In this document: positions 11,993-51,239 of the stretch, one piece after another
How the letters are laid out: the number at the start of each line of letters is the position of its first letter
Numbering within the stretch: position 1 is the stretch's first letter
NCBI GenBank assembly: GCA_963798485.1
Contig: CAWCTR010000004.1
Location: forward strand, 96,001 to 160,000
Origin: an uncultured delta proteobacterium
GTDB taxonomy: Bacteria; Desulfobacterota; Desulfomonilia; UBA1062
DNA length: 64,000 nt
Reading direction: 5' to 3'
Made by a program: the position numbers and the translations under genes
Notes under the pieces: generated by a model
What the model was told of the DNA's origin: nothing
Databases searched by the model: none
Seen by the model: the letters and a program-made list of their open reading frames with translations, nothing else

Positions 11993-13174
11993 ATGGATAA
12001 CACGATACCAAGATCAAAAAACAACGATTATTCAAAGGATATCATTGGAGAACGCCATCAGTTTCTCAAGGAAAAGACCGGCATAGAACTGAAACATGTG
12101 GATAAGTATTCCTTTGACCCTGCCGTACTCCCGGGGAATATCGAGCATTTTATCGGGGTAGCCCAGGTGCCCATAGGAATTACCGGCCCTTTGCTCGTAA
12201 ACGGAGAATATGCCCAGGGTGAATTCTATGTCCCCCTGGCGACGAGTGAAGGAACCCTTGTCGCAAGCTACAACAGGGGAATGAAGATCATAAAACTGTG
12301 CGGCGGTGTAACTACGACGATCCAGGAAGAAGCGATGCAGCGCGGCCCTGTATTCATATTCGAAAATGCCCGTCAGGCCCGTGATTTCGGTATCTGGCTG
12401 AAAGAAAATTTCGAAGAGATCAAGAAACAGGCCGAGAGTACGACCAGAACCGGAAAGCTTATCACCATTGAGCAGTATCATGCCGGCCGGTTTGTATACA
12501 CCCGGTTCGATTATACCACCGGTGATGCCGCAGGCCAGAATATGACGGGGAAGGCCACCTTTATCGCGTGCGAGTGGATCAGGAGAACCAACCCCCAGGT
12601 AAAGAGATACATGATAGACGGCAATTTCTCTACGGATAAGAAGCATTCAACCATAAATCTCCTCAGGACCAGGGGCAAGAGGGTTACAGCCGAGATCACG
12701 GTCCCTGAGAAGATCGTCAGGGAGCAGATGAACCAGTCACCGGCAAGGCTGCAGTTTTACCACGGTGTCGGGATGCTCGGATCATATATGTCCGGCGCCA
12801 TAAACAATGGAAGCCACTCCGCCAACGGGATCACCGCCCTGTTCATCGCAACGGGGCAGGATGTGGCAAACGTCGCGGAGGGGTCGGCTGCAATAACCTA
12901 CAGCGAGAGGACAAAGGAGGGTGACTACTACTTTTCAGTCGTTATCCCCGCAATGATTGTTGCAACCCATGGAGGGGGTACAGGCCTTGCGACCCAGAAA
13001 GAATGCCTCGATCTGATGGGCTGCTCCGGGAAAGGCAAGGTAAAGAAGTTCGCCGAGATTGTCGCTGCCACAGTCCTTGCAGGGGAGCTTTCATTGATGA
13101 GTGCGATGAGAGTGAATAAGGACGGCACGAGTGACTGGATATCAAGTCATGATAAATTGGGGAGGAACAGGTAA
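11993..13174 (+). CDS. hydroxymethylglutaryl-CoA reductase family protein (class I-like)
   Basis: NIEHFIG, PLATSEGTLVAS, TGDAAGQNM, TDKK, ATGQDVANVAE, HGGGTGL, LAGELS, C-terminal catalytic-type His (SHDKLGR). Confidence 0.9.
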   Translation: MDNTIPRSKNNDYSKDIIGERHQFLKEKTGIELKHVDKYSFDPAVLPGNIEHFIGVAQVPIGITGPLLVNGEYAQGEFYVPLATSEGTLVASYNRGMKIIKLCGGVTTTIQEEAMQRGPVFIFENARQARDFGIWLKENFEEIKKQAESTTRTGKLITIEQYHAGRFVYTRFDYTTGDAAGQNMTGKATFIACEWIRRTNPQVKRYMIDGNFSTDKKHSTINLLRTRGKRVTAEITVPEKIVREQMNQSPARLQFYHGVGMLGSYMSGAINNGSHSANGITALFIATGQDVANVAEGSAAITYSERTKEGDYYFSVVIPAMIVATHGGGTGLATQKECLDLMGCSGKGKVKKFAEIVAATVLAGELSLMSAMRVNKDGTSDWISSHDKLGRNR

Positions 13175-13229
13175 GTTTCATCTCAGGTGTTTATTTCTCT
13201 CTCAAGATCATGAATATGGAGGTTTCAAT

Positions 13230-15122: not shown

Positions 15123-15316
15123 CATTTTTGCGAGCTTCCCATGGGAATCCTTAAGCTCGCAAAGCCTGTCGAATACCATGTGTTCCTCTATGTTCTATTC
15201 CTGCCCATGATTCGGATGCCTCTGCAGGATAGAACAGAGGGATTTCGATCTCCTCATCTGCTCCCTGGTAATCCGTTCCTCCTCTTATACATGGAGGGAG
15301 ATGTATTGTGATGACA

Positions 15317-16528
15317 TCAATCCACTCGAATAACCACGGCATCCCCCTGGGCAAGACCCCCGCAGATGCCGCAGACGCCGTAGCCGCCGCCCCTTCTCTT
15401 TAATTCATACATCATGGTCATCAATATGCGGCCGCCGCTTGCCCCCACCGGGTGGCCGATAGCGATGGCCCCGCCGTTGGGATTAGTCCGCTCCAGGAGC
15501 AAGCGCCACTTCTTCTCGTCCCTACCGGCCAGGATCTTTGTTGAGACAAGGGTAACAGCCGCAAAGGCCTCGTTGATCTCAATGACCTTCATATCATCGA
15601 TCGTGAGAGATGACCGCTTCAGGGCCTTTTTGATGACAAAGCCCGGCAGCTCCGCCATCCTCCTGGGTTCGCTTGCCCCGCTCGCTACGGACATGATGGT
15701 GGCCAGTGGTTTTATCCCCAAAGCCTCAGCCTTGGACCGCCGCATGATAATCACCGTCGTCGCCCCGGCGTCCAGGCCCGGGGCATTGCCCGCTGTCACC
15801 GTGGGGCTGCCGTAGATGGTCTTCAGTTTGGATAAAGCCTCCATCGTGGTATCCGGCCTGGGTAATTCATCTTTCTTGAATATGAAGGGCGTCCCTTTTT
15901 TCTGGGGGATCTCAATAGACACCAGTTCATCATTGAACCGGTCGTCCTTGTCCGCCTGGGCCCATTTTTTGTGCGACCCTACCGCCCAGGCATCCTGCTC
16001 TTCCCTGGATATGCCGTACTCGATGGCGATCTCCCCGGCATCCTTGCCCAGCGGGGTATATTCGCGGTAGGTGATGGGATTCAGATAATCCTGTACAAGA
16101 AGCGGCTTCATACCGGAGCCCCAGCGGTGGTTATTTATGAGAAGAGGCGTATTGCTCATGTTCTCGGCGCCCACGGCCATGCAGGTGTCCGCCTCATTCA
16201 GCAGGATTGCCCTGCGGCCCAGTTGGACCGCGCAGAGAGACGAGCAGCAGGCCCGGTCTATGGTCAGGGAGACTAAAGTATCGGGCAGACCTGCACGCAG
16301 AAGGGCCTGCCTTGCATTCACGTTGTCATAGAGCGCAGCCTCGGCCTGGTCGCACATGCCGTAGTACAGCTCGTCCAGGTCCTCGCCTTTCAGCCCGGAG
16401 CGTTTCAGGCTTTCTTTGATCACGATGACCCCGAGGTCAGTGCTGTGCATCTCCTTGAGCACCCCGCCGAACTTGGAAAAGGGTGTCCGTACCCCGCTTA
16501 CGATAACCACATCATCTTTGTTTTTCAT
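15317..16528 (-). CDS. thiolase (acetyl-CoA C-acyltransferase)
   Basis: RTPF, DRACCSS (catalytic Cys), EINEAFA, NGGAIAIGHPVGASG, CGGLAQG. Confidence 0.95.
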   Translation of the reverse strand: MKNKDDVVIVSGVRTPFSKFGGVLKEMHSTDLGVIVIKESLKRSGLKGEDLDELYYGMCDQAEAALYDNVNARQALLRAGLPDTLVSLTIDRACCSSLCAVQLGRRAILLNEADTCMAVGAENMSNTPLLINNHRWGSGMKPLLVQDYLNPITYREYTPLGKDAGEIAIEYGISREEQDAWAVGSHKKWAQADKDDRFNDELVSIEIPQKKGTPFIFKKDELPRPDTTMEALSKLKTIYGSPTVTAGNAPGLDAGATTVIIMRRSKAEALGIKPLATIMSVASGASEPRRMAELPGFVIKKALKRSSLTIDDMKVIEINEAFAAVTLVSTKILAGRDEKKWRLLLERTNPNGGAIAIGHPVGASGGRILMTMMYELKRRGGGYGVCGICGGLAQGDAVVIRVD

Positions 16529-16541
16529 ACAGCGCTCCTTT

Positions 16542-18008
16542 CTATCGTATCTGGTCGCCTTTGGCTATTCCGCACAGTTCTTTGGCAATCTTCTGCTTGC
16601 CCTTCATGTTCACGAGCCTTGCGATCATGATCCGCTGTGCCTGGGGTGAGCCCGCACCATGCATGGACTCGGTGAGGTAACCTACGGCAGCGGTACCCAT
16701 GGTGATGTTTTCGATAAGCCTCAATATCCTCATCCGGTATTCTGTGGGGACATCCGCCTTTGTCCGGTAGTATTTCTTCACCCACTTACCCACCACCGGC
16801 GAGTTAAGGTCGGCCTCCGACGGGCAGGTGACCACTACGCCGCCTGCAATATCCTGGGCAAGCCTGGCGATCTCATAGGGGAAGCGCGTCACGTTCTGCT
16901 TGTGCACATTGGCCAGGAGCACATCCACCAGGTATGTCCCGCTCGCCTCCTTGTGACCCTCTGATGCGCAGGCGATGCACCCGCAGAAGAGCGTCTCGTT
17001 CAAGTGGTTCATCTCGATGATCTTGTCTTTCACATGGGAGGCCTTCTCTGCACCGTTGTACTCGGCAACGGTCTGGGCAGCGCCGATAAGCACATCGCCC
17101 ACCCCCACCTTGCATGCGTAGCTCTGGCGGTGGTAGGCGGAGAAGCTCTCCACCAACTGGGTGGTGAAGTCATACTCCTTGTACATGAACACGCGTTCCC
17201 AGGGCACGAACACGTCCTCGAAGACGACCAGGGCCTCGTGGCCTCCGTAGAACATGTTGCCCCTATCCATGGTCATGCCTTCGAGTTTCCTGGTGTCGCA
17301 GGACTGCCGGCCCATGATGTAGGTGATGCCTGCTGTATCACTGGGGACTGCAAAGGCCACTGCATAATCCTTGTCCTCTTCCCGCATGGTGATGGTCGGC
17401 ATCACGATGATCTCATGGGAGTTGACCGCGCCGGTCTGGTGGGCCTTCGACCCCCTGACCACGATGCCGTCTTTACGCTCTTCTACCACATGGAGGAACA
17501 TGTCAGGGTCGAACTGTTTGTGGGGGGGCTGGGAACGGTCGCCCTTGGTATCGGTCATGGCGCCGTCGCAGACCAGGTCGTTTTCTTGAACGTATTCGAG
17601 AAATTTGAGGAAGCGCTTGTTGTACTGCGTCTTATATTTCTGATCGATGGCATAGGTAACAATAGACAGGGCATTCATGGCATCCATTCCCACGCAACGC
17701 TGGAAACAGCAGGCGGTCAGAGACCCCAGAAGCCTTCCCATCTTGCTCTTCTTCACCAAATCATCCACGCTCTGGTGGATATGGGTGAAGCGGTTGATCT
17801 TCTTGCCCGTAAGGTGTGATTTGACGGTCATGATATCTTCATATTCCGGCCTGTGGGCAAATTCGTAGGTGGCTGCCACCGCATTCATGGAGGGCCTTAT
17901 GATAGGGTCATCCACCACGTTCTCCACCTTCTTGCCGAACATGTACACGTTCAGCTTCAGCTTCCTCAAACTCTCTTCGTACTCTTTTGCATTCATGAGC
18001 TTAGTCAT
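16542..18008 (-). CDS. abfD: 4-hydroxybutyryl-CoA dehydratase / vinylacetyl-CoA isomerase
   Basis: CFQRCVGMD [4Fe-4S] motif, GAMTDTKGDR, KAHQTG, YHRQSY.CK, ESMHGAGSPQAQR; GGAGG RBS before ATG 18008. Confidence 0.88.
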   Translation of the reverse strand: MTKLMNAKEYEESLRKLKLNVYMFGKKVENVVDDPIIRPSMNAVAATYEFAHRPEYEDIMTVKSHLTGKKINRFTHIHQSVDDLVKKSKMGRLLGSLTACCFQRCVGMDAMNALSIVTYAIDQKYKTQYNKRFLKFLEYVQENDLVCDGAMTDTKGDRSQPPHKQFDPDMFLHVVEERKDGIVVRGSKAHQTGAVNSHEIIVMPTITMREEDKDYAVAFAVPSDTAGITYIMGRQSCDTRKLEGMTMDRGNMFYGGHEALVVFEDVFVPWERVFMYKEYDFTTQLVESFSAYHRQSYACKVGVGDVLIGAAQTVAEYNGAEKASHVKDKIIEMNHLNETLFCGCIACASEGHKEASGTYLVDVLLANVHKQNVTRFPYEIARLAQDIAGGVVVTCPSEADLNSPVVGKWVKKYYRTKADVPTEYRMRILRLIENITMGTAAVGYLTESMHGAGSPQAQRIMIARLVNMKGKQKIAKELCGIAKGDQIR

Positions 18009-18088
18009 ATGTTCCTCCAACACCTTCATTCCATTCCGAGTCAGAACGAGGTATCTTCCTGCCTATAGTTTTCCTTTTTCATCGATAT

Positions 18089-18955
18089 TCATGGGGAAAC
18101 TTCTCCTGCATGTATCATCCAATGGGATAGGAAATCCTCTCCTGCCTTCCTTCCAAGCCTGTAATCAGCTTCTATGGATCCATCACCCATGGATAGACGC
18201 CCGGAGCGAAGAGGTCCGGGGGGCTTTATCTCACAGATCGATGCATCAGGGGGAGGGTACCGGATGAACCGGACGGCATCCCGGTATACACGGTTGAGGC
18301 GATGGATTCTGGCGCGGAGCGCTGGGTAGCCCCGCAGAAAGAAGAAGGCCAGGAACGAGTCCAGGAAGCATCCTTTGGAGGCGTTTGCCGGACGGGTGCG
18401 GATAACGACTATCTTCCGTGCACCACGGAGATATGCCTCCCGAGCGGGCAAAGGCTCTGCCACACCGCCGTCGGCGACCCGCCTGCCCTGAACCTCAATG
18501 AAGTCACGATAGAGCACCGGCAGGGCACTCGATGCCTTCAGGTAGTGTGAGAGGGTGTCTTCATCAGGATGCACAAATACCGGCTTCCCTGTCAGGGCAT
18601 CGGTCACACCTATGAGGTATTCATGGGCCGGGTTAGAGGTGGCGGACTTTGTATCGAGGGGTTCATGCTCGGCTGCATATTCCCAGAGCCAGTCCAGATC
18701 CATCAGGTGCCCGCCGCTCAAGAACCGTCTGAAACTTAAGAATTCCCCCATATTCATGGGGCCTGTGATGATCCGATAGTATCTCTGATATTGCCCGGAC
18801 AGGTAAGAAGCGAGCGTGATCGCCCCTGAAGAAACTCCTATGAGAAGATCGAAGGGATTGAAGCCCTCCTGGAGGAATGCATCGAGCACACCGGCGGCAA
18901 AGATGCCGCGCATGCCTCCGCCTTCCACGACCAGGGCTTTCTTGCCATCCGGCAT
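18089..18955 (-). CDS. patatin-like phospholipase (YjjU-like)
   Basis: EGGGMRG, GVSSG nucleophile elbow, ASSALP, DGG. Confidence 0.9.
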   Translation of the reverse strand: MPDGKKALVVEGGGMRGIFAAGVLDAFLQEGFNPFDLLIGVSSGAITLASYLSGQYQRYYRIITGPMNMGEFLSFRRFLSGGHLMDLDWLWEYAAEHEPLDTKSATSNPAHEYLIGVTDALTGKPVFVHPDEDTLSHYLKASSALPVLYRDFIEVQGRRVADGGVAEPLPAREAYLRGARKIVVIRTRPANASKGCFLDSFLAFFFLRGYPALRARIHRLNRVYRDAVRFIRYPPPDASICEIKPPGPLRSGRLSMGDGSIEADYRLGRKAGEDFLSHWMIHAGEVSP

Positions 18956-19154
18956 TATAATCCCCTTTTGGGTACCATGTAATTCATGCGTCTCTAGCCC
19001 TCACAGAGCGCCTGGAGTATGTCCCCGTATTTCTCATGACATTATGAATGGTTGGCTCTTTTCTTATTCAGAAATGTTACATAGTACTGGGCCGTCTCCT
19101 GTGGTCTCTCCAGCATGGGCATGTGACCGCAGTCCATTGAATGGCTCGGGCCTC

Positions 19155-19949
19155 CTATCGGTCCTTGAATTTTGGTTCGCGCTTTTCCATGAATGCGGCT
19201 GCGCCTTCCTTCTTGTCTTCACTGGCGTAGCATGTGCCGAAGAGCTCGCGCTCGAGCCTCATGCCCATGTAAAGGTCCATGGACATGCCTTCGAGCACTG
19301 CACGCAGAGCGGCCTGAACTGATACACGGCTCTTGGAGGCGATTGCACCTGCCAGCTTCATGGCCTCATCCACCACAGCCCCCTTGGCAACGGCCCGGTT
19401 CACCAGGCCATATGCCTCGGCCTGTCTGCCGTTAAGGAAATTGCCGGACAGGATGAGCTCCAGTGCCCTGGCGGGGCCGATGAGACGCGGGGTCCTCTGG
19501 GTGCCCCCGTAGCCCGGGATGATGCCGAGCTTGATCTCAGGGAGACCCAAGGTGGCGCTTTCATCTGCCAGCCTGATGTGGCAGGCTAGCGCCATCTCCA
19601 TGCCGCCACCCAGGCAGAAGCCGTTGATGGCGGCAATAATGGGCTTGTCCGCATTCATGAACAGGTGCGAGAGTTCCTGGCCCCTGATGAGTGAATCCGC
19701 CCCTTCCTGGGCAGTGGTGAAGTCGTTAAGCTCGCTGATGTCCGCCCCTGCGATGAAGGCCTTTCCTGCCCCGGTGAACACGAGCGCCCGCACATCCTTG
19801 TCTGAGAGCACCTTTAACAAGGTATCCCTGATCTCACCAAGAACAGCCCAGCTGAGCGCGTTCATGGGCGGGTTGTTGATCTCCATCAGCGCTACGCCTT
19901 TATCGCGCACGGTATATGCGCACCGTGTTCCTTCATTGACTGTCTTCAT
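19155..19949 (-). CDS. enoyl-CoA hydratase/isomerase (crotonase)
   Basis: FIAGADI, GGGMEMALAC, PEIKLGIIPGYGGTQR, FMEKREPKF. Confidence 0.94.
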   Translation of the reverse strand: MKTVNEGTRCAYTVRDKGVALMEINNPPMNALSWAVLGEIRDTLLKVLSDKDVRALVFTGAGKAFIAGADISELNDFTTAQEGADSLIRGQELSHLFMNADKPIIAAINGFCLGGGMEMALACHIRLADESATLGLPEIKLGIIPGYGGTQRTPRLIGPARALELILSGNFLNGRQAEAYGLVNRAVAKGAVVDEAMKLAGAIASKSRVSVQAALRAVLEGMSMDLYMGMRLERELFGTCYASEDKKEGAAAFMEKREPKFKDR

Positions 19950-19967
19950 GGATATACCTCCATATTA

Positions 19968-20759
19968 TTATATTTTCCTGCCCGGCAGGCTCATCGAAGC
20001 GGTAATCCCGCCGTCTACCGGAAAAACCTGTCCCGTGATGTAGCTTGCCTCGTCGCTTGAAAGGAAGAGTATGGCCCAGGCAACCTCTTTCGGCACCGCG
20101 GCGCGTCTGAGCTCGGAATACTTGCCCACCTGCCCCTCCTTGCCCGCACTCCTGGCGTAATCGAAAAAGGGCTGGGTCATGCCGGTCTCGATAAGGCCCG
20201 GGCACACGGCGTTGATGCGTACATTGCAGTCGCCCACCTCGCATGCCGAGGTCTGTGTGAAGTTGATCAGCGCCGCCTTGGATGCGCTGTAGGAATTGCC
20301 GCCCGCCCCTGAGCGGATGCCTGCCACCGAGGCGATATTGATGATTGAGCCCTTACGCCTTCCTTTCATGTGAGCTATGATATGCTTTGTGGCAAAGACA
20401 GCGCCCATGACGTTGACTGCGAATACCCTGTGCCAGTCTTCCGCGGTCTGGTTCTCCAGGGGGTCGAGGCTGCCCGGTATTCCTGCGTTATTCACCAGGA
20501 TATCGATAGAGCCGAACTTTTCTATGGCAAGGCCGATCAGGTCTTTGACTTCTTCCTCCGACGATACCTCGGTCTTTCTGATGGTTACCGGCCCACCTTC
20601 GGCAGCGATCTCATCACGCACCCGGATAAGCCGCTCTTCGTTCATATCCGCAAGAACCAGGCGTGCGCCTTCGTGGGCAAAGAGCAGGGCCGTGGCCCTG
20701 CCTATGCCGCTCGACGCGCCGGTTATGATCGCCGTTTTATTGCTGAGACGTCCTTCCAT
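19968..20759 (-). CDS. short-chain dehydrogenase/reductase
   Basis: TGASSGIG, NNAG, YSASK, PG.IET, VDGG. Confidence 0.94.
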   Translation of the reverse strand: MEGRLSNKTAIITGASSGIGRATALLFAHEGARLVLADMNEERLIRVRDEIAAEGGPVTIRKTEVSSEEEVKDLIGLAIEKFGSIDILVNNAGIPGSLDPLENQTAEDWHRVFAVNVMGAVFATKHIIAHMKGRRKGSIINIASVAGIRSGAGGNSYSASKAALINFTQTSACEVGDCNVRINAVCPGLIETGMTQPFFDYARSAGKEGQVGKYSELRRAAVPKEVAWAILFLSSDEASYITGQVFPVDGGITASMSLPGRKI

Positions 20760-20906
20760 ATGTTTCTCCCATAATATATACTCGCCTCCCGTCACGAAGA
20801 CCGGCCTTGTATTCCTCTACGGTTCGGATCGACATAGTGTTTCTTCCTTTGCCCTTTGTTTACGGAAAAGGTGCTGACCAAAGGGGCTGTCTTGGAAAAA
20901 GCCCAT

Positions 20907-20959
20907 CTATTAATCAATTAATAGTTTATATATTAACAATTAAACATCAAACTTGTCAA
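20907..20959 (-). promoter_or_regulatory. sigma70 promoter and palindromic operator for the SDR-crotonase operon (MarR candidate)
   Basis: Minus-strand TTGACA (20959-20954)-N18-TAATAT; perfect palindrome CTATTAAT-CA-ATTAATAG at 20907-20924. Confidence 0.6.
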
Positions 20960-21049
20960 CCACAATCCATTCAGTCCTGACACATTCACAATATGCCTGA
21001 TCATCTTGCGTTGTTTTCACCATAGAGATTCATTTGAAATACAATCTGC

Positions 21050-21165
21050 CCAATTGCAAAACTCGAAAAAAGCCGTCACCCCCGCGAAGGCAGGGGTCCA
21101 GAGATCCATGAAAAGACTGGATTCCCGCTTCCGCGGGAATGACGTTTCGGGAGTTTTGCAATTGG
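21050..21165. mobile_element. MITE-like element: 15-bp terminal inverted repeats enclosing a dRS3/NTS-like palindrome pair
   Basis: CCAATTGCAAAACTC / GAGTTTTGCAATTGG; internal GTCACCCCCGCGAAGGCAGGGGTCCA and TGGATTCCCGCTTCCGCGGGAATGAC. Confidence 0.75.
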
Positions 21166-21201
21166 CTCCTTCTTGATATTTTTAGAGAGAAAGGGGGGGA
21201 T

Positions 21202-21636
21202 CTAGACGGTCTTTTCAATGACATCCAGGATCTGGATGAGCTTTTTGATTTCTTTGCTTCCGACCAGTCCCTCGATCTTCTTGTTCAGCGTTTGGGCAAC
21301 AGGCAGCAACTTGATGGCCAGCTCACGCCCCTTGGGGGTGAGGTGGATCTTCATGGCCCTCCGATCTTCCTTGTCGACAAAACGTTCCACAAGGTCCTCA
21401 CGGATAAGACGATCCACAAACCCGGTGATAGCCGGACTGTCCACCTGTACCCGGTCTGCAATGTCTTTTACGGAAGTGCCGTCATTGTCCAGAAGGTCGA
21501 AGAGGATGAATGTCTGGCCCACGGTCAAACCGTATTTGGCATATTCTCTGTTGACATAGCGCCATATCCTGCGGGTCACGGCGCCGATGCGGAAACAATA
21601 GAATCCGTCAAGGATGTTCATCTTTTTCACGGTCAC
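21202..21636 (-). CDS. MarR family transcriptional regulator
   Basis: GLTVGQ...DIADR...ITGFVDRL...EDRR...LTPKG. Confidence 0.92.
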   Translation of the reverse strand: MTVKKMNILDGFYCFRIGAVTRRIWRYVNREYAKYGLTVGQTFILFDLLDNDGTSVKDIADRVQVDSPAITGFVDRLIREDLVERFVDKEDRRAMKIHLTPKGRELAIKLLPVAQTLNKKIEGLVGSKEIKKLIQILDVIEKTV

Positions 21637-21785: not shown

Positions 21786-21836
21786 TTGCACTGCCTGGCA
21801 TTCAGGTATATATTGTCAGCTGGCCATACCACCAGC
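21786..21836 (+). promoter_or_regulatory. sigma70 promoter with FadR/GntR-type operator
   Basis: TTGCAC(21786)-N17-TATATT(21809); inverted repeat GCTGG-CCATACCA-CCAGC (21819-21836) near the presumed +1. Confidence 0.6.
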
Positions 21837-21855
21837 CATATATAATGGAGACCCC

Positions 21856-22596
21856 ATGAAAGATATCCTGAAGCCGCTTCATTCTGACAGCCTGGTAGAG
21901 GTGTTCATCTCGCGCTTCGAAGACCTCATCCTTACCGGCAAGATCGCCATAGGCCAGAGGCTGCCTTCAGAGCGTGAGCTGGCCCTGCAGCTGGGTGTCA
22001 GCAGGCCCGTGGTGCACGAGGGGCTTGTGGATCTGGCTGCCAAGGGCCTGGTCACCATGAAGCCTCGGGTAGGGACTTTTGTGAACGACTACCGGAAAGA
22101 GGGGTCGCTCAGCATCCTGAACTCCATCATCAACTACCAGCAGGGCTCGCTTGACGAGGACCTTCTGGAAAGCCTGCTGGCCACGAGACTCCTGGTGGAG
22201 ACAGAGAACACCCGGCTCGCCGCTGCCAAGCGCACCGAAGAACACCTAAGGGAGTTTCGCGTGATCCTTGAGGCGGAAGAGGCAACAGGGCCGAAAGATG
22301 TGAAAAATATCACCGCGCTTGACTTCCGCTTCCACCATACCATCGGAATGGCATCGGGCAATGTCATTTATCCGCTGCTCATCAACTCGTTCAAACCCGT
22401 GTACATGAATTTCACCGGCATATTTTTTTCAGAACCCGCCAATGTATTGGATACGATTCGGTTCCACCGCAAGCTCGTGGATGCCATCACGGAGAAGAAC
22501 GCTCCTCGGGCGGTAAATATTATGATCGAGACACTCCACCACGGCGAAATGCATTTGCGCACTATCCTCAACCAGCCCAAAAGGAGAAGGCCATGA
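21856..22596 (+). CDS. GntR/FadR family regulator
   Basis: GQRLPSERELALQLGVSRPVVHE wHTH; FCD domain DFRFH...ASGN; ATGA overlap with the next gene. Confidence 0.93.
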   Translation: MKDILKPLHSDSLVEVFISRFEDLILTGKIAIGQRLPSERELALQLGVSRPVVHEGLVDLAAKGLVTMKPRVGTFVNDYRKEGSLSILNSIINYQQGSLDEDLLESLLATRLLVETENTRLAAAKRTEEHLREFRVILEAEEATGPKDVKNITALDFRFHHTIGMASGNVIYPLLINSFKPVYMNFTGIFFSEPANVLDTIRFHRKLVDAITEKNAPRAVNIMIETLHHGEMHLRTILNQPKRRRP

Positions 22597-25109
22597 GTAC
22601 GTCGTCAGCACTCAAAGGCGTTGCTAAGATCAAGGAACCGAAAAACCTGTCTAACCGAATAACCTGGCTGCGGGATTATTACTATAAAGGCGTGGATCGC
22701 GCATGGAACAACGAGTTCACTGCCTGGACCACAGGAACGCCCTGGGATGTGCAGTTCGACGAGATGACCTTCTATATCGTGCCCGAGACCTACCCCTTTA
22801 TGCAGACCTTCCGCTCCTCAATGCAGCAGGCGGCAAGGCCGGTGAAATTGCATCCCGACTTCTGGAAGTGGAGCCTGGTCGAGCGTAAGGCCTGGTTCGT
22901 CAGGGAAGTGATGGTGAACTATGTGCCCCGGGAGATCTTGCCCGGCGACCTCATTGCCGGGGGCCGCTTCAACCTCCAGACGTCCAAGTGCTGGACAAAA
23001 CAGGAGGCAAGGCTTCGCGACAAGCTCATCTACGGCAAAAAGGGCGCGCGAGCATCCATGAAGTGGTTCCACGACCACGGCTATGGCAACTCGGGCGCCA
23101 CGAGCGGCCACCTCATCCCGGGCTATGAACGGGCCTTGAAGATCGGATGGAGGGGCATATACGAAGACCTTGAAGATCGCTACAATACCCTGCCCGGCAA
23201 GGATAGGGAGGGCAAGAAGGGCGCCCAGCTCAGGGCCATGATGACGGCCGCCACCACGGCGCGCGACCTGGCAGCCAAATATGCCGCGCTGTGCGAGGGT
23301 ATGGCCCTCGAAGAGAAGGAGCCAGTGAGGCAAGGCGAGCTGCAGCGCATGGCAGCAATCCTCAAGCGCGTTCCCTGGGAGCCCGCGGTCACCTTTTGGG
23401 AGGCCGTACAGGCCCTGTGGATCACACATATGCTCGTCATGAGCGATGAGAACTATCCCGGCCCAGGTGTTTCCTTCGGCCGCATCGACCAGTATCTGCT
23501 GCCCTACTGGCAGCGTTCCCTTGCAGGCGGCATGGAGAGGGAAATGGGCAAGGAGATCATGAAATGCCTCTGGGTGCACGCCAATACGGTGTACGACGCC
23601 ATGATCCGCGTGGGTGACAATGGTATCACCGCGGGCTACGGACAGCTCATCACGCTCGCAGGTGTTGGTGAAAACGGCAAGGATATGACCAATGACCTGA
23701 CTTACGCCATGCTGGAGGTCATCGACGAGATGACCCCCATGCTGGAGCCCAAGCCCAACGTGCGCCTTCATCGGGGGACGCCGGAGATGCTGCTGGACAA
23801 GGTGGTGGACATGATCGCGGTAAGTCAGGGCGCGCCCTTCCTGCTCAACTTCGACGAGCGGTCGATCGCAGGGATGCTGCGCGAGGCAAAGAAGGCCGGG
23901 GTGGAACACCTCATCAACGAGACCAACGTGCACGACTATGCACCCGTGGGCTGCCTGGAGAACACCATGCAGGGCAATGACCGCTCGGGCACGGTGGACA
24001 ACAACCTGAACCTCTTAAAGGCCGTGGAACTGGCGCTGAACGACGGGAAAGACTTCTTTGATTTTACTGACCCCATAACGGCCAAGAGGGAGAAGGTGAA
24101 ACAGGCAGGCCCGAAGACCGGCGATGCCGCAGCATTTGCCGACTGGGATGCGTTCTGGAAGGCCTATGCCGAACAGACGCAGTTCATTGTGCAAAAGTGT
24201 GTGGGGCTCTACGAACTCTCCGAATCCATCCGGGCCCGGTTCTGCCCCACGCCGTACCTCTCCTGCCTGGTGAAAGGGTGTGCGGAAAAGGGGCTCGACA
24301 TCACCCAAGGGGGTGCAGAGCTGGGCTTCACAACCCTTGAGGCCGTGACCTTTGCCACCACGGTGGACTCGCTGCTGGCCATCAAAAACCTGGTGTTCGA
24401 CAAAAAGGAATGCACCATGGCAGAGATGATCGCAGCACTCAAGGCCAACTGGGATGGCTTTGAGAAGCTACAGGCCAAGGCCAGGTTCAAGGCCCCGAAA
24501 TACGGACGCGACGACGATGAGGCCGATGCCATGGCTGTAAAGGTAATGGGGCTGTGGTGCGAGGAGACCTGGAAGTACAAAACCATCTCGACAAACCGCC
24601 GGTTCCGTCCGGGCATGCTGAGCTGGAACTACTGGGTTGGCGACGGCTTCATCCTGCCGGCAAGCCCGGACGGCAGGCCCAAGGGGAGGTTCCTTTCAAA
24701 TGCCATCTGCCCGGTGAGCGGGGCGGACATCAACGGCCCCACCGCCAATGTGAACTCCGTGGGCAAGGCCATGGGAGGCAAAGACCTGCAAGGCCCGGGG
24801 GACTATAGGGGATATTACAACTATCTGCCCAACGGTGCGAGCCACACCATCACCATCAACCCCTCGCTGCTGAAGAACCCGGAGCACCGCTCAAAGTTCA
24901 AGTCCTTTTTGAGGGGATACGTGGAAAAGGGGGGCAGTGCGCTGCAGATCAATATCCTTGACGCGGATATGCTTAAACACGCCCAGAAGAGGCCCGAAGA
25001 CTACCGTTCGCTCCTGGTAAGGATAACAGGGTACAACGCGTACTTCACGAGCATCGGAAGAGAGCTGCAGGATGAGGTCATCGCCCGCCTCAGCCATGAG
25101 TCACTGTAA
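22593..25109 (+). CDS. glycyl-radical enzyme 1 (PFL2/eliminase-like, function unknown)
   Basis: SFGRIDQYL, Cys loop VGCLE, ASPDGR, Gly-radical loop LLVRITGYNAYF. Confidence 0.92.
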   Translation: MSTSSALKGVAKIKEPKNLSNRITWLRDYYYKGVDRAWNNEFTAWTTGTPWDVQFDEMTFYIVPETYPFMQTFRSSMQQAARPVKLHPDFWKWSLVERKAWFVREVMVNYVPREILPGDLIAGGRFNLQTSKCWTKQEARLRDKLIYGKKGARASMKWFHDHGYGNSGATSGHLIPGYERALKIGWRGIYEDLEDRYNTLPGKDREGKKGAQLRAMMTAATTARDLAAKYAALCEGMALEEKEPVRQGELQRMAAILKRVPWEPAVTFWEAVQALWITHMLVMSDENYPGPGVSFGRIDQYLLPYWQRSLAGGMEREMGKEIMKCLWVHANTVYDAMIRVGDNGITAGYGQLITLAGVGENGKDMTNDLTYAMLEVIDEMTPMLEPKPNVRLHRGTPEMLLDKVVDMIAVSQGAPFLLNFDERSIAGMLREAKKAGVEHLINETNVHDYAPVGCLENTMQGNDRSGTVDNNLNLLKAVELALNDGKDFFDFTDPITAKREKVKQAGPKTGDAAAFADWDAFWKAYAEQTQFIVQKCVGLYELSESIRARFCPTPYLSCLVKGCAEKGLDITQGGAELGFTTLEAVTFATTVDSLLAIKNLVFDKKECTMAEMIAALKANWDGFEKLQAKARFKAPKYGRDDDEADAMAVKVMGLWCEETWKYKTISTNRRFRPGMLSWNYWVGDGFILPASPDGRPKGRFLSNAICPVSGADINGPTANVNSVGKAMGGKDLQGPGDYRGYYNYLPNGASHTITINPSLLKNPEHRSKFKSFLRGYVEKGGSALQINILDADMLKHAQKRPEDYRSLLVRITGYNAYFTSIGRELQDEVIARLSHESL

Positions 25110-25118
25110 AGGAAAGGC

Positions 25119-26123
25119 ATGACAAGCGCACAAAACAAACACCAGGGAACAATCCTGCGCATCCAGCGCATGTCCACCGAGGACGGGCCGGGCATCAGGA
25201 GCACGGTCTTCTTCAAGGGATGCCCGCTCTCATGCATATGGTGCCATAACCCGGAGGGCATCTCACGCGAGCCCCAGGTGCATTGGGTGAAGTCCAGGTG
25301 CATCGGCTGCAGAGGCTGCATAGAAGCCTGCCCAAAAGGGGCCCTTGCCATGGGGGACAGCGGCATAACCATTGACCGGTCGCGGTGCGACTCGTGCTCC
25401 GAGTGTGTTCAGGCCTGCCCATCCACGGCCATGGAGGCCTACGGCGAGGTCTTTTCCGCCCACGATCTGGTGCGTGAGGTCATCAAGGACAAGGTGTATT
25501 TCCAGAAGTCAGGCGGCGGGGTGACGCTGTCGGGAGGCGAACCCACCATGCAGCCGGTCTTTACCGGAGAGCTGCTTTCATCTTTCAAACAAAAAAGTGT
25601 CTATACCGCCCTTGACACCTGCGGGCAGTGTTCGTGGGAAACCCTTGAGGCCCTGCTTCCGCAGGTGGACCTGGTGCTGTACGACCTCAAAGAGCTCGAT
25701 CCGGGAAACCATAAGCGATTCACCGGCATCACCAACAAGAGGATACTGCAGAACCTCATAATGCTGGGGCGCCTTATGAAGGATCGCGGTATGCCAGGGG
25801 ATCTCTGGATACGCACACCCTTGATTCCGGGCTGCACGGCAACACCGGAAAATATCAAGGGCATCGGCGCCTTCATCAGGAAGCACTTACATTCGGTGGT
25901 AAGCAGGTGGGATCTGTGCACCTTCAATAACCTGTGCATCCACAAGTATGATGGGTTGGGGATGGACTGGCGCTTCAAAAGCTCTGTGCTCCTTGATGAG
26001 GACCAGGCACATCACTTGCTTACCCTTGCCGGGTCCTCGGGAGTCGATGCAGGGATTGTCCACCTGAGCGGGCCCATGAGAACAATCTATCCGGATATGA
26101 GTGCAGTTGGAGGAAAAATATGA
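25119..26123 (+). CDS. glycyl-radical enzyme activating enzyme (radical SAM with ferredoxin insert)
   Basis: DGPGIRSTVFFKGCPLSCIWCHNPE, CIGCRGCIEAC, CDSCSECVQAC, GGVTLSGGEP. Confidence 0.95.
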   Translation: MTSAQNKHQGTILRIQRMSTEDGPGIRSTVFFKGCPLSCIWCHNPEGISREPQVHWVKSRCIGCRGCIEACPKGALAMGDSGITIDRSRCDSCSECVQACPSTAMEAYGEVFSAHDLVREVIKDKVYFQKSGGGVTLSGGEPTMQPVFTGELLSSFKQKSVYTALDTCGQCSWETLEALLPQVDLVLYDLKELDPGNHKRFTGITNKRILQNLIMLGRLMKDRGMPGDLWIRTPLIPGCTATPENIKGIGAFIRKHLHSVVSRWDLCTFNNLCIHKYDGLGMDWRFKSSVLLDEDQAHHLLTLAGSSGVDAGIVHLSGPMRTIYPDMSAVGGKI

Positions 26124-26968
26124 AGAAGACCTATACGAGTTTTGATGCCCTCGATATGAAGCAGTTCGAGCCCGAGGCAAAGGTGGGCCTCATCGCCACA
26201 ATAAACCACGAAGGCCTGCCGCACGTCACCCTCATCACGGCCCTGCAGGCAAAGACGCCCGAGAAGCTCATCTGGGGCCAGTTCTCCGAAGGCATGAGCA
26301 AGGAGCACGTGAAGACCAATCCGAAGACAGGCTTTGCCATCATGACCATGGACAAGAGCCTGTGGCGCGGCAAGGCGCTCTACACCCACAGGGCCGCCAG
26401 CGGTGAAGACTACGAGATGTTCAACTTGAAGCCTATGTTCCGCTACAATGCCTACTTCGGCATTCACACCGTGCACTACATGGACCTCTTTGAGACCTAC
26501 GGAAAGGAATCCCTGCCCCTTGCCCGGATCGCCCTGGGCTCTGTCCTGGCCCTGGCGGGACGATCCGCCGCGAGGCAAGGGCATGAAGAACGCATCTTAA
26601 AGCCCTGGGCAGAGGGCCTGTTCAAGAGGCTCGACACCATCAAGTTCATCTCTTACGTAGGGGGTGACGGGTTCCCGGTGATCATCCCGCTCATCGGCTG
26701 CCAGGCAGCAGACAGCACCAGGCTCGCCTTTTCGCCGTCGGCCTACGGCGAGGAGCTCAAGGCGATAAGGCCGGGTGCAACCGTTGCCGTGTTCGGCCTT
26801 ACCATGGATATGGAAGACGTGCTGGTCAGGGGCACCTTCAGCGGGTTTGAGAGGCACCGGGGCATTACGCTCGGGTGTGTGGACATCACCTGGGTTTACA
26901 ACTCCATGCCGCCGAAACCCGGCCAGATCTACCCGGACTCAGAGCTTAAGCCTGTAGTGAATTTCTGA
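26120..26968 (+). CDS. pyridoxamine 5'-phosphate oxidase-like (split-barrel) protein with two internal repeats
   Basis: KVGLIATINHEGLPHVT...SKEHVKTNPK and a second repeat IKFISYVGGDGFPVIIP; ATGA-coupled to the activase. Confidence 0.7.
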   Translation: MKKTYTSFDALDMKQFEPEAKVGLIATINHEGLPHVTLITALQAKTPEKLIWGQFSEGMSKEHVKTNPKTGFAIMTMDKSLWRGKALYTHRAASGEDYEMFNLKPMFRYNAYFGIHTVHYMDLFETYGKESLPLARIALGSVLALAGRSAARQGHEERILKPWAEGLFKRLDTIKFISYVGGDGFPVIIPLIGCQAADSTRLAFSPSAYGEELKAIRPGATVAVFGLTMDMEDVLVRGTFSGFERHRGITLGCVDITWVYNSMPPKPGQIYPDSELKPVVNF

Positions 26969-26982
26969 TTGGAGGAACACGC

Positions 26983-29361
26983 ATGAAATCCCAAACAGCA
27001 CAACCCAGACCCGACGGCAGGTTAACCCCGCCCGAGCGCTTTACACGCATCAAGGATGCCCTGCTCTCTCAGAGAGTGCATCTCTGTACCGAGCGGGCCC
27101 TGCTCATCACGGAGTTTTTCAAGAAGCACGACAATAAGAAAGAGCCCATGGTGATCCGCAAGGCCAAGGCGCTGCGCTACCTGCTCCAGAAGAAGTCGGT
27201 GAAGATCTTCGATGATGAGCTCATCGTCGGCAATGTGGGCGGCTTTCGGAAATCGGTTATCATGCAGCCTGAGCTCTCCGGGGTCGTCATGAGCGAGGAG
27301 CTACTCTGGATGGGCTCCCGCAAGACAAACCCCTATCCCATTTCCTGGGCGGAGCGCCTGAAGCTCGTCTTTAAGGTCATCCCGTACTGGTACTTCAGAA
27401 ATATGAACGCACGGGCATTCAAGTGGTACAGCCCGAAGCTTATCCGTTTCGTATTGGCGCAGCTTACCGCCACCAACTACCTCATCAATGAGTCCGGCGG
27501 CATAGGCCACTTCCTGCCCGATTACGGTAACATGATAAGGCTCGGCATCAAAGGCTACATGGAAACCCTTGATGAGTCGAAGTTCGACCTCCATGCAGCA
27601 GCGCTCATCGCCTGCGAGGGCCTGGCAGACTATGCAAAAAGGCTCTCTGCAGAGGCATCCAGGCTCGCATCCAAAGAGGAATCGCCCACGAGAAGGCAAG
27701 AGCTCTTTGAGATTGCGCGCGTCTGCGACAAGGTGCCCCTGGAGCCTGCCAAGACCCTGCACGAAGCCCTGCAGGCCCTGTGGCTCACCCACATGGCCGT
27801 ATGCCTTGAAGGGATCAACTCCGCCGTCTCTTTTGGGAGGATAGACCAGTACCTTTACCCGTACTACAAGGCCGATATCGCCTCCGGCAGGCTCGATGCG
27901 GAGAAGGCCCGGGAGCTCCTTCTTTGCTTCTCTGCCAAGACCACCGAGCATATGTTCCTCCTTTCCAGCAGGGTCAGCGAGTATCACGGCGGATACCTGG
28001 TGGCCCAGGCCGCTACGGTAGGAGGCATGGACAGCCAGGGCAATGATGCGGTGAACGACCTCACATACCTGTTCCTCGATGTCATGGAACTGGCGGGTCT
28101 TCGCGACCCGAACTACATGGCAAGGATCCATGCATCTTCTCCCGAGGAATATGTGCGCCGGGCCGTGGAGGTGGCATGCAAGGGTAGCAATGTGCCGGGC
28201 CTGTTCAATGATGAGGCCACCATAGCATCGCTCACCTCCCACGGTTACGCCCTCGAAGATGCCCGCGACTATGGGGTCGTGGGCTGCGTGGAACCGACCA
28301 TCCCGTCAAAGAGCTTCTGCTCCACTGATGCCGCACTCTTCAACCTGCCCTTGTGCCTGGTCCTGGCCCTGAACAAGGGCATGCGGCCGGGCACCTGGTT
28401 CAGGGTGGGTGCTCCGACACCCGATCCGGCCACGTTCAAAACCATGGAGAACCTCATCGAAGCCTTCAAGGCCCAGGTGGAATTCATGGTGAGCCGACTG
28501 ATCAAGGACATCCGGATAATCGAGCGGGCCAATCGCGATTTTCACCCCACCCCGTTTTCCTCCATGTTGGTTACAGGCTGCCTGGAGAGCGGCCGCGACG
28601 TGACGTCAGGCGGCGCACAGTTCAACTCCAGCGGTATCCAGGGCGTGGGCGTGGCGGACGTAGCTGATTCCCTTGCCGCCATCTTTGAGGTGGTGTTCAC
28701 ACGCAAGTCTTACACCCTCTCAGAGGTGATCAAGGCCATGGGGGAAAGCTTTAAGGACAAGGGGAAACTCAGCGCAGCGCTGCTCTCGGCCCCGAAGTTC
28801 GGAAACGACAACGGCATGCCTGAGCGATACGCCGATCTTGTCGTGCATATCTTCCATGATGCCTTGATGAGGTATCGCAACACACGGGGAGGCCCCTATA
28901 TATCGGGGTTCTACTCCTCGACAACCCATGTGGGCTTCGGCAGGAGGACATCTGCCCTGCCGAGCGGCAGAAAGGCGGGAGAGCCTTTTGCGGCAAGCAT
29001 GGGGTGCTGCAACGGGCGCGACAGGAACGGCCCCACAGCCCTGCTCAACTCGGTGGCTGCGATTGATTCAAGGCTGTCGCCCAACGGCTATGCCCTGAAC
29101 ATGCGCTTCGATGTATCCTCATTGAAAGGTGAAAAGGCCCTGGACACCATGACCGCCCTTACCAAGGGCTTCTTTGCCCAGGGCGGTATGGAGGTGCAGC
29201 TCAATGTGCTCGATCCGTCGGTCCTGGCCGATGCCCGGTCGCACCCCGGCAAGTACCCCGGCATCGTGGTGAGGGTTGCCGGGTACTGCGCCTACTTCGA
29301 TGAGCTTCCGGACACCGTGAAGGACGAGATAATCAGCAGGACCAGGATGGAACTGGGGTAG
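26983..29361 (+). CDS. glycyl-radical enzyme 2 (PFL2/eliminase-like, function unknown)
   Basis: IFDDELIVG, SFGRIDQYL, Cys loop VGCVE, PKFGND, ALPSGR, Gly loop IVVRVAGYCAYF. Confidence 0.93.
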   Translation: MKSQTAQPRPDGRLTPPERFTRIKDALLSQRVHLCTERALLITEFFKKHDNKKEPMVIRKAKALRYLLQKKSVKIFDDELIVGNVGGFRKSVIMQPELSGVVMSEELLWMGSRKTNPYPISWAERLKLVFKVIPYWYFRNMNARAFKWYSPKLIRFVLAQLTATNYLINESGGIGHFLPDYGNMIRLGIKGYMETLDESKFDLHAAALIACEGLADYAKRLSAEASRLASKEESPTRRQELFEIARVCDKVPLEPAKTLHEALQALWLTHMAVCLEGINSAVSFGRIDQYLYPYYKADIASGRLDAEKARELLLCFSAKTTEHMFLLSSRVSEYHGGYLVAQAATVGGMDSQGNDAVNDLTYLFLDVMELAGLRDPNYMARIHASSPEEYVRRAVEVACKGSNVPGLFNDEATIASLTSHGYALEDARDYGVVGCVEPTIPSKSFCSTDAALFNLPLCLVLALNKGMRPGTWFRVGAPTPDPATFKTMENLIEAFKAQVEFMVSRLIKDIRIIERANRDFHPTPFSSMLVTGCLESGRDVTSGGAQFNSSGIQGVGVADVADSLAAIFEVVFTRKSYTLSEVIKAMGESFKDKGKLSAALLSAPKFGNDNGMPERYADLVVHIFHDALMRYRNTRGGPYISGFYSSTTHVGFGRRTSALPSGRKAGEPFAASMGCCNGRDRNGPTALLNSVAAIDSRLSPNGYALNMRFDVSSLKGEKALDTMTALTKGFFAQGGMEVQLNVLDPSVLADARSHPGKYPGIVVRVAGYCAYFDELPDTVKDEIISRTRMELG

Positions 29362-29725: not shown

Positions 29726-30742
29726 TCACCCGAGATACTCGCGATACACCGATGAGAATCTCCTGAGTTCTTTATAATCCATAACCGTGGACATGGGGAG
29801 GTTTGTCTCCTCCACCCCGGCCTCCCTTGCCGAGGCAACAGGGTTGAGGCCGCCTAACAGGATGATGCCCATCTTATTGATGTCCACACTCACCTGACAG
29901 ACGCTCTCGCCCATCTTACCCATGGAGATCACCGGCTGCATGTCGACGCCTTTTAACAGTTCGATGACCTCTTCCACCCCGTCCCTGCACACCCCGGCAA
30001 CCTCGCTGAAGTTAGCCAGGATCTTTCCCTCACCCCTTCTCAGAACCTCCCGAACGGCCGTCATCCGTGCGCTGATGAAGGCCTCCGATGGATCCAGGGA
30101 GGTTCCGGAGTAGTGGATGAGGTCCGCAAAACGCATGGGTTTATGTTCACTTATCTGGAGGATGCCGCCGAATTTTGACTCCAGAGGGATGCCGCGTTTT
30201 AGCAGCATACCGGAAAACACGATGCTGCACACCGTAGCAAAACCGATGCACCCTGGCGGCACATGCACGTCGCCTAAAAAGGCCCCTTCGGGCGCCACGG
30301 CCACCAGGTCGCTTACACAGTAACCCTTTTCAAAGGCCGACTTCATCCCCTTGAGTGCATCCTTGAAACTTTCCCGGGGAAAGAACGAGACATTACTGGG
30401 GATAAGGCCCTTGCCTGCGGTTGCATCGAAGGTGGTCTTGTAGGCAAGGATCTCCATACGGGAGATGCAGTAGCCGACCTTGTCCTGGACCCTGGCGTTG
30501 CGGAGCTCCTCTATGCCTTTTTCCGTGATGAGCCTGCCGTCCCTCCTCCCGATAAACCGTGTAAGCTCGCGCTGGTCCATGAATTGAAGGTGATAGCGGA
30601 CGGCGCGCTCGCTCAGGTTGATCCCGTATTCCTTCATCCTCCTGGCGATGATGCGCGCGCCGAGCGGTTGCCCTGCATGGTTGAGGATTCTCAGGATCAG
30701 GATGCTCTTCCGTTCCATCTCATCATATGCAAACATGTTCAT
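29726..30742 (-). CDS. NrpR-like regulator (wHTH + DUF128/NRD domain)
   Basis: PLGARIIAR...LSERAVRYHL, TVCSI, FGGILQ, YSGTSLDPSEAF, GGLNP. Confidence 0.85.
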   Translation of the reverse strand: MNMFAYDEMERKSILILRILNHAGQPLGARIIARRMKEYGINLSERAVRYHLQFMDQRELTRFIGRRDGRLITEKGIEELRNARVQDKVGYCISRMEILAYKTTFDATAGKGLIPSNVSFFPRESFKDALKGMKSAFEKGYCVSDLVAVAPEGAFLGDVHVPPGCIGFATVCSIVFSGMLLKRGIPLESKFGGILQISEHKPMRFADLIHYSGTSLDPSEAFISARMTAVREVLRRGEGKILANFSEVAGVCRDGVEEVIELLKGVDMQPVISMGKMGESVCQVSVDINKMGIILLGGLNPVASAREAGVEETNLPMSTVMDYKELRRFSSVYREYLG

Positions 30743-47576: not shown

Positions 47577-47587
47577 AAGGGTGCCAT

Positions 47588-51238: not shown

Positions 51239-51239
51239 T

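Follow-up and report, generated by a model that had tools for sequence, protein, structure and literature searches.

The conserved unit of the gene cassette described here consists of a glycyl radical enzyme (GRE1), a GRE activase (AE) and a tandem split-barrel protein (SB), often together with a regulator, and it is not a pair of twin GREs. The cassette lies in a stretch of 64,000 nucleotides from an uncultured delta proteobacterium (contig CAWCTR010000004.1, positions 96,001 to 160,000), the whole of which we call the window. Five co-directional open reading frames (ORFs) were called at 21856-29361 of the window, encoding a FadR-type regulator, GRE1, AE, SB and a second GRE (GRE2), with intergenic spacings of -4, +9, -4 and +14 nt. 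This is the five-gene layout that had been given in a first-pass annotation of this DNA. Our best explanation, which we consider moderately probable, is that the repressor, GRE1, AE and SB form a self-regulated cassette for a two-subunit, oxygen-sensitive GRE of sediment bacteria, and that GRE2 is an optional passenger. The features of the cassette are:

21786..21814, + strand: putative sigma70-like promoter, TTGCAC-17 nt-TATATT, read by eye; weak evidence
21815..21837, + strand: operator of the FadR-type regulator, consensus palindrome GGCTGGTGGTAATACCACCAGCC, immediately 3' of the -10 box
21856..22596, + strand: GntR/FadR-family repressor, 246 aa (Pfam GntR and FadR_C/FCD)
22593..25109, + strand: GRE1, proposed catalytic subunit, 838 aa; VGCLE loop with C454/E456, RITGY loop with G813; uncharacterised GRE clade
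25119..26123, + strand: AE, radical-SAM GRE activase, 334 aa, with a 2x[4Fe-4S] insert; AE1 clade (assigned by TIGR02494, motifs and tree)
26120..26968, + strand: SB, tandem split-barrel (PNPOx-like) protein, 282 aa; predicted accessory subunit of GRE1
26983..29361, + strand: GRE2, diol-dehydratase-like, 792 aa; VGCVE loop with C435/E437, RVAGY loop with G767; activase-less clade

Conservation and regulation of the cassette

In a scan of GTDB genomes, relatives of GRE1 were encoded on 272 stretches, and 73 loci were retained from these. SB is found 3' of GRE1 in all 60 loci that extend far enough, and it is retained in the four of these where AE is absent between the two genes. GRE2 follows in 13 of 55 loci, one of them with a 34-residue stub, which leaves 12 intact or frameshifted copies. 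Conservation of the five-gene order, which the first-pass annotation had offered as a check on its interpretation, is therefore a genus-level arrangement only. Of 14 genomes in the window's genus, 13 have GRE2 at 70% identity or more. GRE2 was also searched for, at a cut-off of E 1e-150, in the whole genomes (completeness not given) of 47 of the 73 loci, selected because they have no full adjacent GRE2: seven carry a GRE2 orthologue (59-69%) elsewhere, two have a sister protein only and 38 have none at this cut-off. The stub itself (L011:14459-14560) comes after SB in a Syntrophobacteraceae locus, and the near relatives of this locus are without it.

The same association of GRE1 and SB is seen in a phylum sample of 301 genomes, where the GRE1 clade is present in 41 genomes and SB in 39, all of them within the 41. 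In the other two genomes, SB is split or the contig breaks off. Twenty of the 41 genomes contain GRE1 at at least 68% identity, and the other 21 contain the sister clade GRE1b at 45-53%; between the sister clade and the window the GREs are ~50% and the SB proteins ~25% identical. At 80-95% identity, the nearest genome loci carry the label Desulfomonilia or delta proteobacterium, in one case Bacteriovoracaceae, and the host is probably a Desulfomonilia bacterium. Cassette loci are also found in Spirochaetota, Bacteroidota and Myxococcota.

The operator core TGG-N4-ACCA lies upstream in 52 of the 53 regulator-bearing loci, compared with 1.6 expected by shuffling; the 91 other upstream regions are all without it. 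It is found at none of the 33 GRE1a loci without a regulator, the 17 GRE1b loci or the 21 orphan GRE2 genes. The site in the window is the top-scoring one of its own genome, which has no convincing second operator (the next sites score 18-23 bits and have no informative gene), and 17 of the 31 searched genomes have a single site apiece. On this conservation we regard the operator as real, and the regulon of the FadR-type repressor is read as the GRE1 operon itself, because the operator occurs once per genome and only upstream of regulator-bearing loci. The first-pass annotation had placed the genes behind a promoter with an operator; its operator is borne out, but the evidence for the promoter is weak, as it was read by eye and is not among the sites listed by a consensus scan.

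The regulator combines a GntR helix-turn-helix with an FCD/FadR_C domain and a TGG-N4-ACCA-type operator, which places it in the GntR/FadR family, and it scores below the cut-off of every named NCBIfam regulator. Its closest PDB sequences are FadR-type and it resembles E. coli FadR in sequence. The residues R111, D156, H160, H204 and H229, which we take to be the metal/carboxylate site of FCD regulators, are conserved (52 homologues). The effector could, as a guess, be a hydroxy-carboxylate or an acyl compound. A perfect operator palindrome is also present upstream of an FAD oxidoreductase of the Amino_oxidase family at L299:4066-5823 (G016:C248), with no GRE nearby.

The 388 flanking ORFs form 265 clusters, none of which is conserved across lineages; the largest is NrpR (10), and all are lineage-local. 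A Pfam scan covered the representatives of 97 of the 265 clusters, among which neither transporters nor aldehyde dehydrogenases nor shell proteins recur. In the flanking ORFs scanned around the cassette, genes for a shell, a transporter or a small Fe-S subunit were likewise not found, in agreement with the absence of these genes, including those for a bacterial microcompartment shell, in the earlier description. Possible clues to the substrate came from thiamine genes (family f11), glycerol kinase, 2-hydroxyacid dehydrogenases and FAD oxidoreductases, but these were dropped as local or distant. The upstream block of MarR, SDR, enoyl-CoA hydratase and thiolase genes was rejected as part of the cassette, as it is on the other strand and not co-conserved.

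The split-barrel protein as a predicted partner of GRE1

SB has no Pfam or NCBIfam match. Its model consists of two split barrels (pLDDT 91.8), and the structures closest to it are those of HupZ and small FMN-binding proteins (top Z 14.4, root-mean-square deviation (rmsd) 2.9, 119 residues). We assign it the FMN-binding split-barrel fold, for the second barrel via homology to the first: the two halves are homologous by profile (hhalign probability 97.4), although BLAST of half against half is not significant. HupZ, Swol_0183 (3IN6), LDB0262 (2HTD), YviC and the Desulfovibrio FMN-binding protein share this fold with Z 11.7-14.4 over 113-130 residues and rmsd 2.5-3.7. These are single-domain homodimers with 9-16% identity, whereas SB is a fused pseudo-dimer with RYNxY and PPxxG motifs. 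A single-barrel SB of 147 aa at locus L228 bears both motifs, which suggests that the ancestral SB was a homodimer and that its cleft became specialised after fusion. In the sister clade, SB has retained the helix motif K-[ST]-x-x-N-L, which we take to be the flavin-phosphate site; the lysine is unconserved in the window's clade. With 282 aa and no invariant cysteine, SB does not fit the HiPIP- or rubredoxin-like type of small subunit. In total 3579 SB relatives were found, and in the Atlas SB groups with PNPOx_N-like clusters of Thermodesulfobacteriota, Chloroflexota, Bacillota and Promethearchaeota.

The locus with the single-barrel SB (L228:7103-15422, GRE1b-AE-SB) is found inside a LIV/HAAT-type ABC transporter operon with transposase-like flanks; at no other locus seen does a transporter belong to the same run of genes.

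The modelling of complexes had been proposed in the first-pass annotation, and for GRE1 and SB it gave a prediction score of 0.83, compared with 0.00 for the best of three controls. The score mark is attained by 116 of 157 solved pairs and by 2 of 215 mismatched pairs, and is a rough guide here as our own alignments were supplied. Residues 12-735 of GRE1 and 4-279 of SB were used as input, and the 80-row alignments given for the two proteins were drawn from one set of loci. The runs have at least 92% of contacts in common with a partner pLDDT of at least 87, and PDB searches returned no GRE/split-barrel complex that the prediction could have remembered. Eight of the 12 invariant residues of SB (F55, R108-Y109-N110-x-Y112 and P264-P265-x-x-G268) fall within the 39-residue interface (hypergeometric p ~3e-5), an enrichment that is not independent of the prediction, because the complex model received the same alignments.

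On the side of GRE1, the contacts to SB involve the clade-specific N-terminus (34-82, 110-114 and 129) as well as 336-346, 494-497 and 679-686. In the model of GRE1 alone, 342-349 and 679-685 are below pLDDT 50; they precede strand 353-356 and follow strand 670-675, which we infer to be barrel strands 3 and 8. The substrate channel of BSS is described as lined by helices alpha3' and alpha8' and the loop after beta1, with the beta subunit as its plug (PMC13450708 section 4.3; PMC12358834), and by analogy the segments of GRE1 that contact SB would match these elements. SB is probably a new kind of GRE accessory subunit, because its invariant residues are predicted to touch those parts of GRE1 whose counterparts in other GREs line the substrate channel. 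The complex prediction supports binding of GRE1 and SB and does not establish it. The split-barrel protein was present as first annotated, but it had been given too little weight for an invariant partner and predicted binder of GRE1.

The two GREs, their activase and the proposed chemistry

GRE1 and GRE2 both score above the cut-offs of PF02901 and PF01228. They keep the Gly and Cys loops yet are dissimilar elsewhere, as had been stated before, with 31% identity over 677 aligned residues. The Gly loop motif is found in 96 of 97 GRE1-clade sequences, the lone miss having a frameshift-like tail, and in 34 of 34 GRE2 sequences. C454 is invariant in the GRE1 alignments, as are H173, E456, R464, T467, D469, E583, W678 and G813. 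The key residues of GRE2 are H176, H335, C435, E437, D449, Y644 and G767, and since its Cys, Glu and Gly are kept in 34/34 sequences GRE2 does not appear to be decaying. The Pfam PFL-like match of GRE1 begins at residue 170, and its N-terminal ~165 residues are divergent. Placement of both proteins in a FastTree GRE tree (57 rows, with long-branch warnings for references) puts neither in the glycerol/propanediol dehydratase group and gives GRE1 a separate clade with support 100. The GRE1 model (pLDDT 85) has TM scores of 0.70-0.77 to many GREs, and no GRE family stands out in a fold search with it.

Both proteins are under every curated NCBIfam GRE cut-off, the best specific matches being 368 bits against 1000 for GRE1 and 487 against 1100 for GRE2. 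They are not PFLs: they have a single Cys instead of CC, and TIGR01255 gives 89 (GRE1) and 142 (GRE2) bits against 994. For CutC the scores are 318 and 480 bits against 1050 (TIGR04394), with a His where CutC has Asp (His164 position). HypD gives 341 and 487 bits against 1100 (NF043068), and its D278/S334/D339/F340-type pocket residues differ. The scores for HpfG/HpsG (NF048009/NF048011) are 368/354 and 467/462 bits against 1000. The decarboxylases HPAD and IAD score 176-344 bits against 1100-1150, and the cassette is without a small Fe-S gene such as that of HPAD. X-succinate synthases are among the weakest GRE matches; the loop is CxE, and beta/gamma Fe-S subunit genes were not found in the cassette. 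Identity to glycerol/propanediol dehydratase, HypD, CutC, PflD and YbiW is 27-35%. The CxE motif of the 1,2-eliminase/isomerase class is present as CLE in GRE1 and CVE in GRE2, but decarboxylases carry CxE too and the motif is insufficient alone. Judged by their sequences, GRE1 and GRE2 are members of the PFL-like GRE superfamily outside every characterised family, so that their earlier description as uncharacterised, CxE-type and not PFL holds.

The glycerol/propanediol dehydratase pocket comprises H164, H281, S282, Y/F339, D447 and Y640. GRE2 retains three of the six (H, D, Y) and GRE1 one (H). At glycerol dehydratase 447, 640, 281, 282 and 339, GRE1 has V, L, P, G and G. The residues H176, C435, E437, D449 and Y644 of GRE2 are equivalent to 164, 433, 435, 447 and 640, and GRE2 has S, A and A for H281, S282 and Y339 together with a conserved new H335. 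The roles of the reference GRE residues other than H281, S282, Y/F339, D447 and Y640 are those given in section 5 of a 2026 review (PMC13450708).

In the mechanism that we propose, the repressor would sit on the operator behind the -10 box until a substrate-related effector frees it. GREs are activated by the installation of a radical on a glycine by an activase, and AE would put this radical on G813 of GRE1. SB is predicted to dock on the N-terminal helix 65-82 and the segments 336-346 and 679-686 of GRE1, and may gate or seal the channel through its split-barrel cleft, as BSS-beta does. The C454 thiyl radical would take a hydrogen from the carbinol carbon, while E456 would deprotonate the hydroxyl and H173 would aid the loss of the neighbouring group. 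The CxE motif and the His point to a 1,2-elimination or a (ring-opening) isomerisation as the outcome, and we think it fairly probable that GRE1 catalyses one of the two. R464, D469, E583 and W678 define what we read from the alignments as a new pocket. Our guess is that the substrate is a metabolite from within the cell, a hydroxylated carboxylate or an acyl-type compound, because the cassette has neither a transporter nor a downstream enzyme as a constant companion. The simplest reading of GRE2 is a separate C-O lyase, which would act on a vicinal diol bulkier than glycerol.

AE matches TIGR02494 with 314 bits against a cut-off of 174, has the motifs CxxxCxxC at 35 and CxxCxxCxxxC at 61 and 90, and stays under every substrate-specific AE cut-off. 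None of the 19 orphan GRE2 loci fetched contains an AE (12 have at least 2 kb on each side), and several sister proteins of GRE2 at 40-45% identity have their own. In the GRE tree the operonic GRE2 is nested among the orphans (support 97), and a separate GRE2 branch (genome G127) has its gene immediately 5' of GRE1b-AE-SB, which makes a second joining with another gene order. The tree thus indicates that GRE2 of the orphan clade joined GRE1 cassettes twice. GRE2, being without its own activase, may be activated by an AE1-clade enzyme, and this may be how it was twice drawn into GRE1 operons.

In the sample of 301 genomes, GRE2 is found in 14, of which 13 have a GRE1-clade gene (seven families, in which kin are not independent). 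The exception is G022 (97% complete), which has GRE2 without GRE1 among three GREs and two AEs, all solitary; one of these AEs is 53% identical to that of the window and falls inside the AE1a clade (support 99 in a quick tree of 57 of 107 rows, with every third AE1a row kept). Counts of GREs and AEs per genome are 2/1 in G014 (98% complete), 3/1 in G369 (95%), 3/2 in G002 (100%), 4/2 plus a weak fragment in G117 (100%) and 3/2 in the window's own genome (97%). In 20 further genomes, GRE domains outnumber AEs in 18 and equal them in G009 (4/4) and in G215 (1/1, no GRE2). The earlier claim that one activase serves both GREs seems well founded: we consider it likely that one AE1-clade activase serves GRE1 and GRE2, because G014 has two GREs and a single AE.

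Further observations were made on GREs and activases outside the cassette. The window's own genome contains on contig C2 (L074:9026-13045) a third GRE of ~998 aa with 200 extra N-terminal residues, a RISGY loop and its own AE; it lies beside TetR and SDR genes and is widespread in the genus. Next to GRE2, in operonic as well as in orphan loci (L015, L025, L095, L107 and others), lies a gene for a 453-aa Fe-S protein that has two ferredoxin-like motifs. G119, G155, G302 and G328 (family f43) have GRE1-SB without an operonic AE, a solitary AE1-clade gene elsewhere, and 9 to 26 PFL-like matches with 4-5 activases per genome. Frames of ~1120 aa that match activase and Gly-radical models, apparently fusions, are found at G245:C12:1461-4517, G275:C8:10385-13435 and G042:C201:707-3760. 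Plasmids of Acinetobacter and Moraxella (L308:4935-8310) encode a relative of the GRE2 sister clade together with an activase of its own, which is unexpected in aerobes.

Alternative explanations and relation to known systems

Several other points weigh against a two-subunit GRE1 with eliminase or isomerase chemistry and an activase shared with GRE2. GRE1 lacks D447, Y640, H281, S282 and Y339 of the diol dehydratases, and CxE occurs in decarboxylases and isomerases too. The complex was modelled without the radical domain of GRE1, the GRE1 side of the interface is not enriched in conservation (0.75 compared with 0.76 elsewhere), and the mapping to the channel relies on strand counting and on the review's description of BSS. 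With respect to the activase, the four AEs of G009 leave room for a dedicated GRE2 activase, and the glycine loops differ between GRE1 (R[IV]TGYNA) and GRE2 (RVAG[YF]CA), whereas the cross-activation described in the literature (PMC13450708 section 2.5) concerns near-identical loops. GREs 40-45% identical to GRE2 co-occur with GRE1 as well (6/8), therefore the co-occurrence of GRE1 and GRE2 partly reflects niche. Finally, all genomes are assembled bins, and the large searches scored three candidates per genome.

The role of SB could be a different one. As a flavoenzyme module it would hold FMN at the channel mouth and oxidise, reduce or tautomerise the product or a radical intermediate of GRE1, giving a net redox reaction. 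Its closest structures are FMN- or F420-binding split barrels, the sister clade has the K-[ST]-x-x-N-L motif and residues 55-58 of that region in SB are in the interface, and there is no other conserved downstream enzyme. We nevertheless find this rather doubtful: the motif lysine is not conserved in the window's clade, a helix of GRE1 appears to occupy the cleft in the predicted complex, and many split-barrel superfamily members are described as binding no FMN or other flavin (PMC11602992). A bolder version seems unlikely to us, in which FMN over the channel of a flavin-coupled GRE1-SB would allow net redox on a substrate derived from sediment necromass, and AE would be a generalist acting on a number of unrelated orphan GREs whose glycine loops differ, the latter because some genomes have 9-26 GREs and 4-5 activases. 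GRE activases need a one-electron reductant, and a flavoprotein fold next to AE could make SB the electron donor of the activase in place of flavodoxin, with another activase for GRE2. This we hold to be very improbable, as SB remains with GRE1 when AE moves away, G022 has an AE1 but no SB was found there, SB is predicted to bind GRE1, and G014 has a single AE.

The question also arises whether the two GREs belong together. GRE1-SB and GRE2 could act in one pathway, sequentially or on stereoisomers or analogues of one substrate class, so that a shared metabolism joins them. This would fit the presence of the GRE1 clade in 13 of 14 GRE2 genomes, the two independent joinings and, in the window's genus, the shared operator of a GRE2 found in 13 of 14 genomes. 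But most GRE1 cassettes are without GRE2, the L011 lineage has kept nothing but a stub of GRE2, the operator is absent from orphan GRE2 genes, and G022 has GRE2 without GRE1. We regard a common pathway as possible but less than probable; it is compatible with our best explanation and does not exclude it. An obligate heterodimer of GRE1 and GRE2 with a single activase, the second option of the first-pass annotation, is extremely unlikely. GREs do dimerise via a conserved helical interface (PMC13450708 section 4.4) and the two genes share an operon in this genus, yet each GRE is found without the other, their identity is low, the N-terminus of GRE1 is divergent, and the term heterodimer is absent from the review. 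Of the earlier interpretation, the uncharacterised GREs and the shared activase stand, while the obligate heterodimer or two-step pathway does not, as GRE1-AE-SB mostly occurs without GRE2 (12/55 adjacent, 7/47 elsewhere in the genome).

Among the neighbours in the window, 13131-21636 is a fatty-acid/CoA block with a long-chain acyl-CoA synthetase-like protein, thiolase, an HpaB-family protein (presumably 4-hydroxybutyryl-CoA dehydratase), patatin, enoyl-CoA hydratase, SDR and MarR. An NrpR nitrogen regulator at 29726-30742 is convergent with GRE2, and this synteny is confined to the family. The region 46821-60938 has a lower GC content and encodes RadC, an N6-methylase/HsdR fusion, an HD protein, an Mrr nuclease and an integrase; it is likely a defence or mobile island.

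The known systems closest in chemistry would be glycerol dehydratase (1R8W/1R9D) and propanediol dehydratase (5I2A, 9RCO), which are B12-independent, C-O-cleaving GRE 1,2-eliminases. Both window GREs share with them the PFL-like barrel, Gly loop, CxE and the His164 equivalent, AE has a ferredoxin insert as theirs does, and GRE2 also has the D447 and Y640 equivalents. They differ in identity (27-28% for GRE1, 34-35% for GRE2), in the loss of H281/S282/Y339 in both, and for GRE1 in R464, D469, E583 and W678, the divergent N-terminal 165 residues and the extra subunit. Moreover the cassette has no alcohol dehydrogenase or microcompartment genes, and GRE2 has no activase of its own. The best PDB sequence match is Archaeoglobus fulgidus PFL2 (2F3O, function debated; E 4e-89 for GRE1 and 2e-149 for GRE2), which is a homotetramer with no split-barrel partner reported.

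With respect to subunits, our prediction of an accessory protein over channel segments is reminiscent of BSS and MASS, in which the beta subunits plug the channel (PMC13450708 sections 4.2-4.3; PMC12358834). However, the small subunits of BSS, MASS and HPAD are HiPIP- or rubredoxin-like iron proteins, whereas SB is a tandem split barrel in which no Cys motif is conserved, and GRE1 is a CxE enzyme that scores far lower against these families. Section 4.2 of the review lists accessory subunits for these three GREs only, all of them iron proteins, and a term search of the review likewise found no mention of split barrel, FMN or orphan. LssP of the limonenylsuccinate synthase operon (PMC12583861) is also a PNPOx-like gene of unclear role within a GRE operon; there the GRE is a fumarate-adding enzyme with its own beta/gamma subunits, and LssP is not proposed as a subunit. 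It was the nearest case in a literature search, mostly without reach into subscription papers, that gave no account of the cassette. Activases are described as specific (PMC13450708 section 2.5). The E. coli PFL-AE, acting on PflB and TdcE, is similar to our case in that one activase serves two GREs (section 2.5 of the same review), but PflB and TdcE have identical Gly loops, while here three of seven loop residues differ and the GREs are only 31% identical.

If our explanation is true, a split-barrel subunit would be a new GRE architecture, probably with a new reaction in anoxic carbon turnover, in a clade that is widespread, being found in 41 of 301 sampled Desulfobacterota genomes. A natural activase that acts on divergent GREs would furthermore make activase specificity directly testable. 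This could ease the activation bottleneck, which the review (PMC13450708) names as the main barrier to assigning functions to GREs.

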